Assembly (NCBI GenBank): GCA_020833025.1
Contig: JAJHRB010000001.1
Location: forward strand, 12,277-76,276
Direction of reading: 5' to 3'
Origin: Thermoproteaceae archaeon
GTDB lineage: Archaea > Thermoproteota > Thermoprotei > Thermoproteales > Thermoproteaceae
DNA length: 64,000 nucleotides
Shown: positions 3,503 through 12,469 of the stretch, in pieces
Position numbering within the stretch: position 1 is the first letter of the stretch
Layout: each line of letters opens with the position of its first letter
Program-made: the position numbers and the translations under genes
Notes under the pieces: model-generated
Told to the model about the DNA's origin: nothing
The model's database searches: none
The model's input: the letters and a program-made list of their open reading frames with translations, nothing else

Positions 3503-3520
3503 TTAAAGTTAACTTTAAAT
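3503..3520 (+). promoter_or_regulatory. argG promoter: perfect 16-bp palindrome overlapping the TATA box
   Basis: TTAAAGTTAACTTTAA at 3503-3518; TTTAAAT at 3514-3520, about 24 nt upstream of ATG 3541. Confidence 0.65.
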
Positions 3521-3540: not shown

Positions 3541-4757
3541 ATGGCGAGCAGCGCCTCGGGGCGAGCAGAATAGTACTTGCCTACTCGGGAGGTCTGGACA
3601 CCACGGTAGCAATAAAGTGGCTAAGGGAGAAGTTCAATGCAGAGGTTTATACTGTCACTGTTGACGTCGGGCAGGAGGAGGACTTTGCAGAGATTGAGGA
3701 GAGGGCATACAAGGCAGGCGCAGTGCAGCACTTCTACATAGATGCAAAGAGAGAATTCGCCGAGGAATACATATTTCGCTCTATTTTAATGAATGGAATG
3801 TATGAAGGGCTATACCCACTGGGGACCGCTCTGTCTAGGCCCCTAATAGCTAAGAGGGTTGTCGAGATAGCCAGAAGGGTCGGAGCAGACGCAGTGGCGC
3901 ACGGGTGCACCAGCAAGGGGAACGACCAGGTCAGGTTCGAGCTGACAATTAAGGCGCTCGCGCCTGACCTGAAAATCATAGCGCCGGCGAGAGTGTGGGG
4001 CATGACGCGCGCTGAGGAGCTTGAGTACGCCAAGCGTCACGGACTGCCTGTGAGCGCCGAGCACAGGAAATTCAGCATTGACGACAATCTTTGGTCGAGG
4101 TCAGTAGAGGGGGGCCCGCTGGACGACCCGGCCGCGGAGCCCTCGGAAGAGGTCTTCAAGTGGACGGTCGCGCCAGAGAAGGCGCCAGACAAACCGACGT
4201 ATCTGACGCTAGAATTTAGAGACGGGCTCCCAATTGCGATAAACGGCGAGAGAATGGACCCGCTCGCACTGGTGACCGCGCTTAACGGCATCGGCGGTGC
4301 AAACGGTATCGGCAGGATAGACCACATGGAGAGCAGGGTAGTGGGGCTTAAGAGCCGGGAGGTATACGAGGCGCCAGCAGCCGTGATACTGTACCACGCG
4401 CACAGAGACCTCGAGAAGCTCGTGCTCACGCCGCGCGAGCTGAGATTTAAGCACGGGATTCTTGACACCACGTGGTCGGACCTAGTGTATCAGGGCCTGT
4501 GGGTCGAGCCGCTGCGCGTGGCGCTTGAGAGGGCAGCAGAGGAGATGGAGCGGTGGGTGACCGGCACGGTGAGAGTAAAGCTCTACAAGGGCGCCCTCTG
4601 GATAGTGGGGAGGGAGTCGCCGTATAGTAGCTACAGCAGAGAGCTCGCCGACTACAATAGAGGGTGGTATCCGAGCGACGAGGAGGCCAGGGGATTCATT
4701 AAAATGTGGGGCCTCCACTCGCTGATCGCCATCAGGAGGCGCCGGCTGGCCGTCTAG
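3541..4757 (+). CDS. argG: Argininosuccinate synthase; start ATG out of frame, -1 shift needed near 3558-3561
   Basis: [13 protein letters not shown] from 3567, [22 protein letters not shown]. No ATG/GTG/TTG in frame before 3723; ATG 3541 reads [10 protein letters not shown]. Confidence 0.93.
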
Positions 4758-5011
4758 CCGGCGCGAAGAGGAAAGCACCAAAACTGGGCCGGGGAGGGAA
4801 AACAGGCGAGGTTTCAGTACCGCTGCCGGAGCGCAACTCGCGGCAACTGCCGCTAACACTCACGGCGATAATATAATGAGGGAATTGAGGGAGGGCGTTG
4901 CATGCCTCAAGAAGTCCGCGCGAAAGACGCCCCGGGCTTTCTGGCCCCGGAGGGCAGCGAGAGTGAGCGTGTCCTGCCACTCTCAAGCCTCGCTAGCTGT
5001 TTTAACTGTGG

Positions 5012-6229
5012 TCATGAGCGCGACCCCGAGCCCTCAAAGAAGTACAGCACAGCGGAAGGCCATGACTTTGCTACTGGTGACACGTCGTCCACGCACCCTC
5101 CCACTATCTTGAGCGCCGCGAGCGCCATTAGGCCAATTCTGTGATCGCCGTGTGAGGGCAACACGACGCCGCCTCTCCTGAGGGGCCCCCTCACGTGCAG
5201 TGTGCCGTCCTTGTACTCAGCATATGCGCCGAGCCTCCGCAGCACGTCGATGACAGAATTTATCCTGTCGCTCTCCTTAAACCGCAAGTGCTCCACCCCG
5301 CGGATTACTGAGAGGTCCTCTACCGTCGCGGCTGCCAGCGCCAGCGGCATGACTAAGTCAGTATTGTGCCTTAAATCTGCGTCAACTCCCCTGGCAAGCG
5401 CGCCGCTCACGCGCACGACGCCTCCTGCCTCGCTGATCCTGGCGCCCATTTTCTCCAGCGCCTCTAAGAGGGGCCTGTCGGTGCTGGCAACCGTGCACGC
5501 TATCTCCACGGTACCCCCAGTGGCGAGCGCCGCCACCGCGAGGAATGCTGCCAGGCTGAAGTCGCCAGGCACTTTAATGCTGCCGGGGCTTCTCAGCGTG
5601 CCGGAGACCTCCACGACGCTCCCCACGCTGACTCTCGCGCCAAAGGCCTTGAGAGCCTCGGCCGTCGCCTCGACAAAGCTCCAAGATCGCCTCTCGCCGA
5701 GGGGCTCCACGACTCCGCTTCCGCACAGCGCGGCGAGGTACATGAGGCCTGAGATGTATTGCGACGAGATGTCAGCCCTCACGCGCACGTGAAAGCTCTC
5801 GAGGCGCCTGCCCTCAACCACCACAAGGCCGGGCGCCCAGACGACTCTGGCAAGACCCCTCAAGGCGTCTACTAGCTCTCCGAGAGGTCTCTTTAGGAGA
5901 GTACCGCCGTATAGTATTGCAGTGATGCCTGGCACGCCTGTGTAAATGGCCGTGGACGCGCGCAGTACGAACCCGCTCTCCATGACGCTAAAGGCTCTGA
6001 GGCGCTCCGGCTCTCTCCTATCAATCATCACGCTGGCTCCCTCCAGTCTCACGCTCGCCAGCGGTTTTACTGCCCTCAACGCTGCGATCACGTCATCGCT
6101 CAGCTCGACCCCGTCAATTATAGTCTCCCCGTCAGCAAGCGCGGCGGCAAGGATAAAACGCTGGGAGTACGGCTTCGACGGCGGCGCCGGGAATCTACCC
6201 CCGAGAGTGCCTCGCTCAATGCAGAACAT
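5012..6229 (-). CDS. aroA: 3-phosphoshikimate 1-carboxyvinyltransferase (EPSP synthase)
   Basis: [24 protein letters not shown] and GDHRI motifs. Confidence 0.92.
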
Positions 6230-7247
6230 GAACTACGTAGGAGGTGGCCCTTGCAACATCCTCAGGCCTGACCCTCTCCAGCACCCACCTCCCCAGCCTG
6301 ACCACTAGCGGCATGTAGATGTACTCGCCGCGTCTCTTTTTGTCAAATTTTATCAGCGAGAGCGCGCCGGCAAGCTGCTCCCTCGACGCACGCGCCCGCG
6401 TTGGAAGCCCGAGCACCTCAAGCAGCGACCTCACGTCTGCAACAACGTCCTCGCGCAAGTAGCCCAGGTCGCGCGAGAGGTGGAGCTCTGCAACTATTCC
6501 GAGAGACACAGCCTCGCCGTGAAGGAGGCCCAGCACGCGCTCGAGAGCGTGTCCTACTGTGTGGCCTACATTCAGAACCTGCCTTATTCCCCTCTCCTCA
6601 AACTCGTCGATCTCAACCACTCTAGCCTTTATCTGAAGCGAGCGAAAAATTGCCGTCTCGAGCGCCCTCTCCTCCCGCCTCAGCAGCGCGTCCACGCCCT
6701 GCTTTATCCACGCGTAGAGCTCCTCGTCGAGCGCCACGCCATACTTCACCATTTCGGCAAACGCCGACCGGTACGCCCTATCGGGCAGCGTGTCTAGCCA
6801 TGACGTGTCGCAGAATATTAGCGAGGGCTGATAGAAGACGCCTATGAGGTTCTTGATGCTGCCGACATCGACCGCGCCCTTGCCTCCCAGTGCCGCGTCA
6901 ATCATAGCGAGAAGCGTCGTGGGAACGCTCACGAGTCTAAGTCCCCTCATGTAGGTCCCAGCCGCAAAGGTAGCGACGTCGAGCAGCGCGCCCCCGCCCA
7001 CGGCCACAAGGGCTGTTGACCTGTCGGCGCCTGCGCGCGCGAGAAATTCATATATCTTGAGCAGCGTGTCGAAACTCTTGACACCCTCGCCGCCCTTCAG
7101 TGCCAGCACGGGGACGCCGGGTATTGGCGGCCTGAGTCCCTCTTCGATTACCAGCACGGGTCTCTCTACCAGCTCTGAGTACGGGAGATCTCTCCCCACG
7201 ACGACCTCGGTCATCCCGCGGCTATGTCTGTAAGCGAACCGCTTCAT
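6216..7247 (-). CDS. aroB: 3-dehydroquinate synthase
   Basis: [43 protein letters not shown]. Confidence 0.95.
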
Positions 7248-8188
7248 CGCAGTCTCACGAGCTCCTCGGCCCTCGCCGCCACGCTCTCTGGCGTGAGGCC
7301 GAAGTGGTGGTAAAGATCGGCAGGGCTCTTTGCGCTCCTGCCATAGGACTTGAGGCCCATGATGGCGATTTTCGTCGGCCTTGTCTGGGACAGATACTCG
7401 GCGACGGCGGAGCCGAAGCCGCCGTGAACCATGTGCTCCTCGACCGTGACAATAGCGCCGGCTTTGGTCGCGTATTTCTCCACCGTGGAGTAGTCGAGGG
7501 GCTTAACAGTGGGGAAGTGCACTACGGCGGCCGATATTCCCCGGTCTTTTAGCAGCTGTGCTGCGTCAATGGCGCACGGCAGCATGATGCCAGTTGTAAA
7601 TATCGCAACATCGCTCCCCTCTCTGATAACATACGCCCTGCCCACCTCGAACTTGTCGTAGAGTGAACAGGTAACCGGGACGTGAAAATCCCTCCCGACC
7701 CTTATGTAGGCAGGCCCCCTTATTGCTGCCGATGCCATGACCGCCCTGTATACCTCGCACGAGTCCGCCGGGACTATTATGGTGAAATTAGGGAGAACTC
7801 TAAAGAGTGCGACGTCCTCCAGCGCTTGGTGTGACGGGCCGTCGTACGCGTCAGAAAATCCTGCGTGAGTCCCAACGAGCCTGACGGGAAGCGCGAGCCT
7901 GTCAACGGCGTTTCTGGCCTGCTCCCAGCCCCTTGCTAGGAACGCCGCGAACGTCACGGCGTACGGCATAAAGCCGGCCAGCGCTAAGCCGGCGGCGATC
8001 CCGACCAGCGCCTGCTCCGCAATGCCAACGTTGAAGTATCTCTCCGGGTGTCTCTCAGCGAAGAGCCTGGCCCTTGTGGGCTCCCCCGTATCTGCGACGA
8101 GCACGACAACATCCCCCCTTAAATCTCCGAGATCCGCCAGCGCGCGCCCCAGCGCCTCCCGGGGCGTTAGCTCTTCTAGCCCCGACAT
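7244..8188 (-). CDS. Transketolase, C-terminal subunit
   Basis: [34 protein letters not shown]. Confidence 0.93.
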
Positions 8189-9008
8189 GCTAGAGACTGT
8201 GCGTACTGCAGGGCCTCGTCTCTCGATAGTCTCTGCCGGGGAGTTCCCTCGATGCCCGGCACTCCCCTCCCCCTCGCAGTTCTGGCAATAATCACTGCGG
8301 GTCTTGTGCTGCTCTCGGCCCTTTCAAGCGCCGAGACTATCTGCTCGTGGTCGTGCCCGTCGGTCTCGAGTACTTCAAAGCCGAGCGCTCTGAGCCTGCC
8401 CGGCAGGTCCCCCTTGCGCAGTACCTCCTCAACGCGCCCGTCGAGCTGTATGCCGTTGTAGTCCACTATCGCGAGGAGATTAGTCAAGTTGTAGTGTGCC
8501 GCCGCGGCGAAGGACTCCCAGCTTAGCCCCTCGTCGAGCTCTCCGTCGCCAGTTATTAAGTACACGCGACCTCTGTTGCCCCTCAGCTTGAGGCCCAGGG
8601 AGAGGCCGACCGCCATGCTTATTCCCAGAGCCAGCGAACCTGAGTTGGGCACGTCGACAAACGGCGTGTCTGCCTCGGGGTGGTTCTGGAGGCGGCTGCC
8701 CAAGCTACCGGACTCCCTCAGCTCGTCGAGCGCTAGATAGCCCATTGCCGCGGCGAGCGCGTAAATCGCGTGCACCGCGTGACCCTTAGACAGCACTAGG
8801 TAATTCCTGTTGCCCACGCCATTTGCTAGATTGAACTTCACTCTGCCAGTGCCGTAGAGCGCTACCAGTATGTCGAGCACCGAGAGAGACGACCCGAGGT
8901 GCATCCCGGGGTCGTAGCTCGCCATTAGGAGCAGGTATAGTCTCGCCCTGCACGCCAGCTCTCTCAGCTGCTGAACCCCGACCTCTCTAGTGCTGAGTAC
9001 CCCTGCAT
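8176..9008 (-). CDS. Transketolase, N-terminal (TPP-binding) subunit; start ATG out of frame, -1 shift needed near 8979-8976
   Basis: HLGSSLS, LSKGHA, GDGELDEG. The frame stays open upstream of ATG 8925 through the first helix (QQLRELACRARLYLLLMA) with no canonical start; ATG 9008 reads MQGYSALERSGFSS*. Confidence 0.9.
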
Positions 9009-9027: not shown

Positions 9028-9035
9028 TATTTAAG
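9028..9035 (-). promoter_or_regulatory. TATA box of the tkt-tkt-aroB-aroA operon
   Basis: CTTAAATA on the minus strand, about 23 nt upstream of ATG 9008. Confidence 0.6.
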
Positions 9036-9100: not shown

Positions 9101-10081
9101 GTGGAGCGCTTGTTGAGAAACGTCGTGGAGGTAGTGACGCCCGAGGAGTTCTCCAGGCTGGGAGGCGGCGTGGCGTACCTCGGCTTCGAGCCGACCTGGC
9201 CAATACACGTTGGGTGGCTCGTGTGGGCTTTCAAGCTCGCAGAGCTCAAGGAAGCCGGCTTCGACGTGGTGCTGCTCGTCGCGACGTGGCATGCGTGGAT
9301 AAATGACAAGGGGTCCGTGGAGGAGCTGAGGGAGCACGGCCGTAAAATAAAGTCATTTATCGAGAAAATTAGCAATTTCAAATATGTCAATAGCGACGAC
9401 ATTGTCAGCGACCCGAAGTACTGGGAGCTGGTGGTCAGGGTGGCGAAGGTGACCTCTCTGGCGAGAGTGAGGCGCGCGATACCAATAATGGGCAGGCAGG
9501 CCGAGGAGGTCATGCTCGACTTCTCGAAACTGCTGTACCCGGTCATGCAGGTCGCCGACATGCTCTACCTTGGTGTCGACGTGGCGGTAGGGGGGCTCGA
9601 CCAGCGTCGCGCTCACATGCTGGCAAGGGATGCGGCGGAGAGACTCGGCCTCAAGAAGCCGGTAGCCCTTCATGTGCCCGTGATCACCTCGCTCTCTGGC
9701 GTTGGGAGAATGGAGGGCATTCACGGAGAGCTTGACGAGATGTACGCAATGTACAAAATGAGCAAGTCGAGGCCGAGTAGCGCAATATTCGTCACGGACT
9801 CCGATGAGGAGATTCGCAAGAAGGTCTGGCTCGCGTACTGCCCGCCGAGGGAGACAAGGTTCAACCCTGTGTTTGAGATCGCAGCATACCTCCTCATCCC
9901 ATACGCCGGGCCTCTCGAGGCAGGCGGGCGCCGCTACGAGGACCCGCGCGCGCTTGAGGGAGACTACAGGAGCGGTGCCATCGATCCCAGGACTCTTAAG
10001 GAGGCCGTGGCGTCCGGCCTCATATCTTTATTCTCCAAGCTTAGGAGCTGCGCCGTTGGCAAGCCCGGCACAGCGGCATGA
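9101..10081 (+). CDS. tyrS: Tyrosine--tRNA ligase
   Basis: YLGFEPT, HVGW (HIGH-like), YPVMQVAD, GGLDQ, KMSKS. Confidence 0.93.
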   Translation: MERLLRNVVEVVTPEEFSRLGGGVAYLGFEPTWPIHVGWLVWAFKLAELKEAGFDVVLLVATWHAWINDKGSVEELREHGRKIKSFIEKISNFKYVNSDDIVSDPKYWELVVRVAKVTSLARVRRAIPIMGRQAEEVMLDFSKLLYPVMQVADMLYLGVDVAVGGLDQRRAHMLARDAAERLGLKKPVALHVPVITSLSGVGRMEGIHGELDEMYAMYKMSKSRPSSAIFVTDSDEEIRKKVWLAYCPPRETRFNPVFEIAAYLLIPYAGPLEAGGRRYEDPRALEGDYRSGAIDPRTLKEAVASGLISLFSKLRSCAVGKPGTAA

Positions 10082-11293: not shown

Positions 11294-12469
11294 CTAGCTC
11301 GCGCCCCTTATTACCGCATCGACGTACTTCTTTCTCTCACTGTCGTATTCATCAGCAGCGTAGGGCTTTATCCTCGCTAGGATCTTCGGGAGGGCTGTGT
11401 ACTCCAGCTCCTCAGGCGGCAGCCTGTGCGGCTGGAACGGGCCCATGCGGCGTATGTAATCCGCTATCATTGCCGCCACGTGTCTCGTGTAATCAAAAGC
11501 AGGATCGTCAAACATGTCGACGGCTCCCTCTAGGTGGCCGTCGTGCAGCTGGAAGCCGAGGGCGCCTACCTTCGGCGGCCCGTCGAATCTCGTCATTTTT
11601 GGCCCTATGGCCATTCTCCTATCCGGGTCTATCAGCGCAAATCTTGCCGGCATTAACGGGCCTGCGTGGCTTCCGCGCATCCACCCGTGCACGAGGTGCG
11701 GGTGGGCGAACGCCTCTAGAATCTCGCCGACTGCCGGCAGTCCAGCCTGTGCCCTGGTTATCATGACCGGGTCGTCCTTGCCGACGTACCTGCCGGCTAT
11801 GAGTGAGAGTCTCTCGACGCTATTCACTGCCGCCACGAGCCCGTCCTTCCTGTAAACCCTCCTAATGATGTACCTGCCCGTAGTACCCACGAGACCGAGC
11901 AGCGCGTAGGACTCCTCGGGCGTCTTCAGCAAGTACACCTTGTGCTCCTTCACATCCAAGACCTCGAACACGAAACCGTCGTGCATCGCCGGGTCTATTA
12001 CAAGCCCAGCTGTGTTAAACGGGTCGGCGAATATCCGGTACAGCGGTAGGTTAAATGCGCCTGGCTCTGTCTTGTCGGCTGCAAAGGCAATTACGGGCTC
12101 ACTAGGTCTTTCCTCTATTTCCATCTCGGCGACTTGCGGCCCCAGGCCGCGTATGTTACCTGAGAAGGCATCTTTAAGAAGATCCTGGCCTGCGCCGTAC
12201 AGCTTGTACCTCTTGGCGACTTGCTCCGTGACCTCCTTAAACGTCTCCCACGCGAGTCCGTGAATCTCCGGGCTATCCTCGCCCTTTGTGTGCGTCATTA
12301 GCAGCGATATGTCGTCGCCGACGTTGAAGACGAAGTAATCAATTATGACCCCCCTCCTCTGCGCCTCCTTCAGCTTCGCGGCGGCGTACTCGAGCATTTT
12401 CGGGTGGACTTGCGCGTGCCCCGGAAACCCGCCGACGTCCGCCTTGATCAGCGACACCGTGACCTGCAT
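11294..12469 (-). CDS. fbp: Bifunctional fructose-1,6-bisphosphate aldolase/phosphatase
   Basis: KADVGGFPGH, HKLYGAGQDLL-like segment, YVGKDDPV, HGWMRGSH, RFDGPP. Confidence 0.96.
   Translation of the reverse strand: MQVTVSLIKADVGGFPGHAQVHPKMLEYAAAKLKEAQRRGVIIDYFVFNVGDDISLLMTHTKGEDSPEIHGLAWETFKEVTEQVAKRYKLYGAGQDLLKDAFSGNIRGLGPQVAEMEIEERPSEPVIAFAADKTEPGAFNLPLYRIFADPFNTAGLVIDPAMHDGFVFEVLDVKEHKVYLLKTPEESYALLGLVGTTGRYIIRRVYRKDGLVAAVNSVERLSLIAGRYVGKDDPVMITRAQAGLPAVGEILEAFAHPHLVHGWMRGSHAGPLMPARFALIDPDRRMAIGPKMTRFDGPPKVGALGFQLHDGHLEGAVDMFDDPAFDYTRHVAAMIADYIRRMGPFQPHRLPPEELEYTALPKILARIKPYAADEYDSERKKYVDAVIRGAS

Follow-up and report, generated by a model that had tools for sequence, protein, structure and literature searches.

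Candidate amino-acid-sensing -1 frameshift leaders on biosynthetic operons of Pyrobaculum

Introduction

How can an enzyme be made from a gene whose reading frame offers no usable start codon ahead of its conserved N-terminal part? The question arises twice in a 64,000-nucleotide (nt) stretch of a Thermoproteaceae archaeon – positions 12,277 to 76,276 of contig JAJHRB010000001.1 in assembly GCA_020833025.1, referred to here as the window – where the argininosuccinate synthase gene argG and a shikimate (aro) operon each follow a promoter and a short open reading frame (ORF) that runs in a different frame from the enzyme behind it. An original prediction, made from the letters of the window, proposed that these short ORFs are leaders on which ribosomes, when the pathway's end product is scarce, slip back by one nucleotide into the frame of the enzyme. 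The analysis described below, in which all evidence for frameshift leaders is computational, supports this starvation-slippage interpretation: the elements are very probably amino-acid-sensing -1 frameshift leaders, working through P-site slippage at a 'hungry' codon and forming a functional analogue of attenuation.

To our knowledge, the tuning of amino-acid synthesis to supply is poorly understood in Crenarchaeota, and we know of neither attenuation nor T-boxes in this group. The original prediction added the argument, a plausible one, that classical attenuation would be difficult to construct when mRNAs are leaderless.

Two leaders in one window

The window is part of a metagenome-assembled draft genome of the genus Pyrobaculum, which comprises 126 contigs and in which ARAGORN detects 11 tRNAs. 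When the coordinates were re-read, both sites conformed to the architecture first described for them, namely a promoter-positioned ATG, a short leader, TCG GGG, a codon cognate to the pathway and the enzyme in the -1 frame (Table 1). The argG leader consists of 11 codons including its stop: ATG at 3541, GCG AGC AGC GCC, TCG at 3556-58, GGG at 3559-61, CGA at 3562-64, GCA GAA and TAG at 3571-73, with the run of four Gs (G4) at 3558-3561. The ArgG frame, at -1 to the leader, is open from 3519 and contains no ATG, GTG or TTG until the GTG at 3723, which lies ~47 codons downstream of the nucleotide-binding motif AYSGGLD. The predicted trans-frame product would start with MASSASG and continue with residues of the -1 frame.

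The aro leader, which encodes MQGYSALERSGFSS before its stop, reads ATG (9008-9006) CAG GGG TAC TCA GCA CTA GAG AGG TCG GGG TTC AGC AGC TGA (8966-64). In its -1 frame lies the N-terminal subunit of a transketolase. The first ATG of that frame is at 8925, and the match to the transketolase profile (NF004559) starts at residue 16 of the frame's translation, encoded at ~8985 and thus ~20 residues before this ATG. In both enzymes, conserved and essential N-terminal parts – AYSGGLD in ArgG, profile positions 12 onward in the transketolase – are encoded upstream of any canonical in-frame start. The remaining genes of the aro operon span 5012..8188 on the minus strand, and their stops and starts overlap, which makes translational coupling likely.

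The Phe codon to which attention was originally drawn in the shikimate operon is present (TTC, in cassette 2 of Table 1), but that account was incomplete: the same leader holds a second site, CAG GGG TAC, with a codon for Tyr. The tyrosyl-tRNA synthetase gene of the window (9101-10081) is leaderless in the ordinary way, starting at a GTG whose distance from the TATA box is the same as that found at all leaders (26-29 nt).

Table 1. Features of the two leader-bearing loci, in coordinates of the window. Slip cassettes and sensor codons are putative.
Feature	Position	Strand	Remarks
TATA-like box TTTAAAT, argG promoter	3514..3520	+	27 nt upstream of leader ATG
argG leader ORF, 0 frame	3541..3573	+	10 residues, then stop; read directly; identical in three other assemblies
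argG slip cassette TCG GGG CGA	3556..3564	+	E-site Ser codon, slippery Gly codon, Arg sensor codon
Argininosuccinate synthase body, -1 frame	3558..4757	+	GGG 3558-60, GCG 3561-63 and onward
TATA-like box TTAAATA, aro operon promoter	9028..9034	-	26 nt upstream of leader ATG
aro operon leader ORF, 0 frame	8964..9008	-	identical in four other assemblies
aro slip cassette 1, CAG GGG TAC	8997..9005	-	Tyr sensor codon
aro slip cassette 2, TCG GGG TTC	8973..8981	-	TCG 8981-79, GGG 8978-76, TTC 8975-73; Phe sensor codon
Transketolase N-terminal subunit, -1 frame	8176..9003	-	frame open from 9030
Transketolase C-terminal subunit	7244-8188	-	
AroB	6216-7247	-	
AroA	5012-6229	-	

Leaders elsewhere in the same genome

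A regulatory device, as opposed to an accident at two loci, would be expected on other biosynthetic genes as well. The genome was scanned for a TATA box 16-38 nt upstream of an ATG or GTG that opens a short ORF with G_GGN, combined with a -1 ORF that spans 100 codons or more and lacks its own start. This returned 24 sites, and the list was refined by a coding-potential filter and by family searches, with families confirmed against NCBIfam. At least 12 further leaders with a matching codon were recovered, which brings the genome to at least 14, argG and the aro operon included (Table 2). All promoter-context matches to TCG GGG fall on amino-acid genes, and in each the next codon is cognate. A null model built on amino-acid frequencies gives the 15 cognate sites together a probability of ~2e-20, or 5e-11 once the Trp sites are left out. 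As a control for frame, TATA-linked matches numbered 2 for the +1 frame and 11 for the -1 frame. Without the TATA filter, a scan of 17,790 GGGG runs was too noisy to add operon-internal leaders.

Table 2. Leaders in the draft genome and the sensor codons or amino acids of the orthologous leaders in other Pyrobaculum genomes. Sensor assignments are putative.
Gene or operon	Motif in this genome	Amino acid	Other Pyrobaculum
argG	see Table 1	Arg	16/16 CGA
aro operon	see Table 1	Tyr, Phe	15/15 Tyr, 13 Trp, 12 Phe
carA	TTG GGG CGA	Arg	17/17 CGA
leuA-type isopropylmalate synthase	TCG GGG CTC	Leu	16/16 CTC
Citramalate synthase (cimA)	TCG GGG ATC	Ile	14/14 ATT
Acetolactate synthase (ilvB)	CCG GGA GTA + TCG GGG CTC	Val + Leu	15/15 Val, 15/15 Leu, plus Ile in 6
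Homocitrate synthase	GCG GGG AAA	Lys	16/16 AAA
thrC	TCG GGG ACG	Thr	16/16 Thr, plus Ile in 12
trpE, trpD, two trpB-like (trpB2) genes	TCG GGG TGG	Trp	
Tryptophanyl-tRNA synthetase (trpS)	ATG GGG TGG	Trp	
221-aa gene adjoining thrC	CAG GGG CCA	Pro	

Two entries extend the list beyond biosynthetic enzymes of recognised family. At trpS (contig C31:775-1937, minus strand), ATG GGG TGG stands at the start with the enzyme at -1, and the gene frame itself contains a GTG. The control may thus extend to an aminoacyl-tRNA synthetase, in a manner reminiscent of T-box logic. The other is a gene for a 221-aa protein without an NCBIfam or Pfam match, located on contig C61:8065-8735 (minus strand), ~3.5 kb before the start of the window and divergent from thrC. 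Its leader is ATG AAT CAG GGG CCA CGG in this genome; the counterpart in 11 of 12 other Pyrobaculum genomes contains CTG GGG CCA GAG GGG AAA GTG GGG CGA, with sites for Pro, Lys and Arg. The gene stands first in the LysW-pathway operon of P. aerophilum (ArgC/LysY, LysZ, LysW, argG).

Two further loci were noted in passing. On contig C34:4102-5489 (minus strand), GTG GGG TCG lies downstream of a TATA box, with a nitrate/sulfonate-type ABC-transporter permease gene at -1; gene-frame starts occur 7-8 codons further on, and the match is probably due to chance. On contig C116, at ~7082-7105 of the plus strand, a SerA-like dehydrogenase gene is preceded by a leaderless upstream open reading frame (uORF), ATG TTG CTG TCC CCC CCG TTT TAA (MLLSPPF), whose stop overlaps the ATG of the gene (TAATG) and which contains no G_GGG site.

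Conservation across relatives

If the codon after GGG acts as a sensor, it should follow the pathway across species. The 5' ends of nine genes were read in 30 relatives; the summary counts cover eight of these genes and 14-17 other Pyrobaculum genomes per gene, several of which are complete chromosomes. A leader ATG, G_GGG and a cognate codon occur in every Pyrobaculum orthologue of the eight genes, and the identity of the post-GGG codon – which had been linked to the pathway on the strength of two genes – tracks the pathway throughout. The slip (P-site) codon is read as G_GGG at 182 of 186 sites, as G_GGA at 3 and as G_GGT at 1, and the codon before it always ends in G; in argG, N[N]G GGG CGA is kept in all 16 genomes. 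Orthologues differ in the codon that precedes GGG, in those that follow the sensor codon, in the length of the leader and in the position of its stop. That these flanks drift while the motif stays indicates that selection acts on 'G GGG + cognate codon'. Two details of the motif as first formulated have to be relaxed accordingly: TCG before the slip codon is common (104 of 186 sites) but not obligatory, and the run of exactly two more codons before the stop is coincidental, as leader tails range from 1 to ~20 codons across orthologues.

Several operons whose pathways have more than one product carry a combination of sites: Thr and Ile; Val, Leu and Ile; Tyr, Trp and Phe; and, in the LysW operon, Pro, Lys and Arg. 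The aro leader, whose GGTTAAATA promoter box is conserved in relatives, has the Tyr site in 15 of 15 Pyrobaculum genomes, followed at the position of cassette 2 by TCG GGG TGG (Trp, 13 of 15) and then GAG GGG TTT (Phe, 12 of 15). Synonymous Leu changes among relatives (TTG, TTA, CTA, CTG) indicate that its 0 frame is read. The leader ATG of argG overlaps the lysW stop codon in most Pyrobaculum, suggesting that the device would also work inside an operon. In many carA genes, a TAA stands in the gene frame immediately 5' of GGG, so that the frame opens at the slip codon, the shift is pinned there and in-frame initiation further upstream is impossible.

Beyond the genus the picture thins out. A sister genus, g2, has leaders on ilvB, leuA, homocitrate synthase and carA. 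Another family mostly lacks leaders, and one of its genera keeps CTG GGA CGA on argG. The argG leader of genus g3 (MDNLG-R, with CTG GGA CGA and without a gene-frame start) is homologous to a uORF of genus g6, the leaderless ATG GAT AAT CTG GAA CGA CGT TGA (MDNLERR), whose stop overlaps a gene-frame TTG (TTGA) and which may sense Arg by way of reinitiation. In genus g5 of the other family, ATGATTCGG is conserved at the 5' ends of carA, which lies at +1 relative to the ATG of this sequence and lacks a start in its own frame, and argG shows GTG .. TTA/ATA AAC CGG with the gene at -1; a different slip chemistry, with Arg CGG as the sensor, may operate there. In the other family, the ATG of thrC itself falls within a leaderless uORF (ATG GAA ACC CAG ACA TG.) that has Thr codons and no slippery site.

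Sequence reliability and RNA evidence

Are the frames truly broken, in DNA and in RNA? Independent assemblies (ENA ERZ27247216, two JGI metagenomes and three Logan runs) agree with the window at every base of both leaders, G4 included, so the broken frames are not sequencing errors. The in-frame G5 that would have refuted the prediction was looked for in sister species as well as in these assemblies, and G4 was found throughout. The observation that long genes nearby remain unbroken despite their G runs was also borne out: the window's 11 long intact ORFs (22.3 kb) contain 128 runs of G4 or C4 and longer, without a single break of frame.

For RNA, contigs of two P. aerophilum transcriptome runs were compared with a 7-kb stretch of the chromosome. 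At the homocitrate-synthase leader, the end of one contig coincides with the A of the ATG; at the leuA leader, a second contig starts 2 nt inside the ATG. The leader promoter regions of the stretch have no contig coverage. The contig ends are consistent with leaderless transcripts, though contigs cannot prove where transcription starts. Raw reads of two hot-spring metatranscriptome runs gave no coverage of this P. aerophilum locus. Both leader RNAs contain G4 and no extra G – at the level of contigs, from which rare variants would escape – and this argues against correction at the RNA level. As a positive control, a 1-nt departure from the reference is picked up in leuB by the same contigs. 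At that position (~1173631), both contig sets have an extra G (GAG^GCT) that restores the LeuB frame (MPYKILVIPGDGIGPEVVEAAL...), probably because of a sequencing error in the reference or a strain difference rather than a slip site.

Proposed mechanism

The route by which the enzymes might be made can be pictured as follows. The leaderless mRNA would start at or a few bases from the leader ATG, except that in some relatives this ATG overlaps the stop of the preceding gene. The ribosome would read 2-15 codons and arrive with tRNA-Gly on GGG in its P site, a GGG that always has a G 5' of it, while the A site would present a codon for an end product of the operon's own pathway. With the cognate aminoacyl-tRNA plentiful, decoding would continue in the 0 frame and end a few codons on, yielding no enzyme; with it scarce, the A site would remain empty and the peptidyl-tRNA-Gly would re-pair on G_GG, bringing the ribosome into the -1 frame, which is that of the enzyme. 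Overlapping stops and starts would then carry ribosomes through the remaining genes of an operon. What we infer from sequence patterns is that the ribosome slips, that it does so by -1 and not +2, and that charged tRNA governs the slip; for the last point, the constant match between A-site codon and pathway product gives indirect support.

These patterns bear on the type of shift. The ORFs overlap, the downstream one lies at -1, and the shift site is conserved among relatives. The sites read N_NNG_GGG_XXX instead of the heptanucleotide X_XXY_YYZ, only the P-site G_GGG being slippery, and the A-site codons (CGA, AAA, CTC, ATT, ACA, GTA, TGG, TTY, TAY) cannot re-pair in the -1 frame. No conserved stimulatory hairpin or pseudoknot at the usual distance of 5-9 nt downstream was found with RNAalifold in five gene families (-0.6 to -6.5 kcal/mol at 37 °C), and z-scores for downstream structure in single sequences were between 0 and -0.7. 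Together, the lack of conserved structure and the inability of the A-site codons to re-pair speak against canonical tandem slippage, whereas an absence of downstream structure is expected for 'hungry' slippage confined to the P site, whose codon can here re-pair one base upstream (X_XXY). The leaders also have the form of leader peptides, with 5-25 codons and one cognate codon per end product. Terminator or antiterminator hairpins were not found: the leader overlaps the gene without a spacer, and no conserved structure was detected. Some of the sensor codons are rare (their shares among the codons for the same amino acid are 3% for CGA, 17% for AAA and 11% for GTA). Quadruplet decoding by a sufD-like tRNA-Gly was considered and rejected, as it would shift the ribosome by +1, whereas the genes lie at -1.

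Alternative explanations

A short ORF ahead of an enzyme does not by itself call for a frameshift: it could be a leader peptide or uORF whose cognate codons act by stalling, with the enzyme reached by reinitiation or from a separate start, non-canonical or near-cognate, in the gene frame. Such arrangements have apparent counterparts in the gene-frame GTG of the Trp leaders, in the MDNLERR uORF of g6, in the other family's thrC with its ATG inside a uORF that has Thr codons, and in public pipelines that assign ATN starts to leader-bearing genes. We nonetheless consider this explanation unlikely. It does not account for the G_GGG before every sensor codon (182 of 186 sites), most gene frames have no ATG, GTG or TTG between the upstream stop and the conserved domain, and that of carA is closed by TAA right up to GGG. 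Moreover, the ATN codons annotated as 'starts' fall within or next to the TATA box, upstream of the point at which RNA contigs begin, and leader stops often fall within conserved protein segments, so that reinitiation downstream of them would truncate the enzyme. A frameshift that is real but constitutive, setting a fixed low expression without any sensing, is more doubtful still: G_GGG alone could give a basal slip rate and several sensor codons are common ones, but the post-GGG codon matches the pathway at every one of the 15 sites behind the joint null given above, stays cognate in all orthologues despite its drifting neighbours, and is repeated, one site per product, in multi-product operons.

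Two explanations would dispense with recoding altogether. Polymerase slippage on the G run, or editing that adds a G, could bring part of the mRNA into frame; the site is indeed a homopolymer run, and minor RNA species could escape assembled contigs. Known transcriptional slippage, however, requires longer runs, mostly of A or T (see also PMC5009743); both P. aerophilum runs show G4 at the homocitrate-synthase and leuA leaders although a 1-nt indel was detected elsewhere; and a G5 would put the cognate codon out of frame, leaving its conservation unexplained. Correction at the RNA level is therefore extremely improbable. Errors of sequencing or assembly, or decaying pseudogenes, might be suspected in a metagenome-assembled draft of 126 contigs whose breaks fall within G runs, and yet we give this reading practically no credence, given an identical sequence in three to four other assemblies, the same break in complete genomes of many species, 128 other G4+/C4+ runs intact in the long genes of the window, and enzyme bodies that are stop-free and ~75-85% identical to their orthologues.

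Amino-acid-sensing frameshift leaders thus remain the favoured explanation, and several observations weigh against them. For the His, Met, Ser and Cys pathways, the genome scan recovered no leader of this kind, and hisG has a normal internal start. The Trp sites (GGG TGG) all create a gene-frame GTG, a possible ordinary start, and argG of P. oguniense contains an extra in-frame ATG. The conservation counts come from related genomes of one genus and are not independent events. The sensor codons CTC, ACG, TTC and TAC are common, which makes the rare-codon idea only partly true, and the model does not account for the strong bias towards TCG at the E site. We also know of no demonstration of hungry-codon -1 slippage in archaea. 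On balance, it appears probable that Pyrobaculum possesses a regulon-wide translational sensor, in which 14 or more biosynthetic operons, together with one tRNA synthetase gene, are each gated by a -1 slip whose frequency is set by the charged tRNA for the respective end product.

Implications for annotation and regulation

One practical consequence concerns protein records. Public Pyrobaculum citramalate synthases (NCBI, UniRef) begin with MPLFLYSYAG.. or MPRILYSHAG.., which is the TATA box and promoter read from an ATN codon, and other CimA records are truncated to MLDTTLRDG or MRDGAQG; among the matches listed, the trans-frame N-terminus occurs in none of the public Pyrobaculum CimA proteins. 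The starts of leader-bearing genes are systematically mis-annotated in public Pyrobaculum and Thermoproteus proteins, being either extended into the TATA box or truncated, and the true N-termini of these enzymes would be trans-frame.

If the mechanism holds, it would constitute a new regulatory principle, with the reading frame as the switch and charged tRNA as the ligand, and the first instance in which hungry-codon frameshifting is put to use in nature. It would, moreover, provide an archaeal counterpart of attenuation and the T-box that dispenses with RNA structure and is suited to leaderless mRNAs at 90-100 °C. At ~15-45 nt, with no need of RNA structure and each specific for one amino acid, the leaders could serve as engineered sensors.

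Comparison with known systems

A full-text literature search found no publication describing amino-acid-sensing frameshift leaders of this kind; their components nonetheless have precedents. The closest in chemistry is the leftward (-1) frameshifting at hungry codons of Escherichia coli (Gallant and Lindsley 1992, as presented in PMC8211752 and PMC5009743). There, too, a single P-site tRNA slips on X_XXY while the A site awaits a scarce aminoacyl-tRNA, and no downstream structure is needed. The E. coli shift has been seen only as a starvation error in test genes, whereas the one proposed here would be obligatory and conserved, with 14 or more enzymes or operons depending on it. For hungry-codon frameshifting with functional trans-frame products, a 2016 review of recoding stated that 'no examples are known' (PMC5009743).

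The closest in logic is bacterial attenuation (thrL, ilvL, leuL, pheL, trpL), in which likewise a short leader ORF heads the operon, its codons correspond to the end products of the pathway – with the same combinations of Thr and Ile, of Val, Leu and Ile, and of the aromatic amino acids – and how fast the ribosome passes these codons reflects charged-tRNA supply. Attenuation relies on alternative hairpins and transcription termination, whereas the Pyrobaculum leaders lack conserved hairpins and their output would be recoding; in addition, they overlap the gene in another frame and use one codon per amino acid instead of codon runs. The mycobacterial polycysteine uORF attenuators (bioRxiv 10.1101/834739) are similar in being leaderless short ORFs that head operons and sense an amino acid through cognate codons, but they involve no frameshift and their downstream genes have starts of their own.

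Required shifts that serve negative feedback are known from prfB (RF2) and antizyme, where a slow A-site step likewise allows the P-site tRNA to re-pair (PMC5009743). These shifts are +1, occur at a stop codon and depend on extra stimulators – an internal Shine-Dalgarno sequence, or polyamines and a pseudoknot (PMC5009743) – and each concerns one gene, as opposed to a set of operons that would each sense a different amino acid. Among Archaea, fucA1 of Saccharolobus solfataricus, the single -1 frameshift listed in a 2021 review (PMC1616953, PMC8211752), is likewise a cellular gene that needs a -1 shift for its expression; it uses tandem slippage on the heptamer A_AAA_AAT, with no known link to amino-acid supply, where the Pyrobaculum leaders have only the tetranucleotide G_GGG. 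Judged by its sequence features, the Pyrobaculum system would be a regulon-scale variant of regulatory frameshifting that joins the logic of attenuation to the slippage chemistry of hungry codons.

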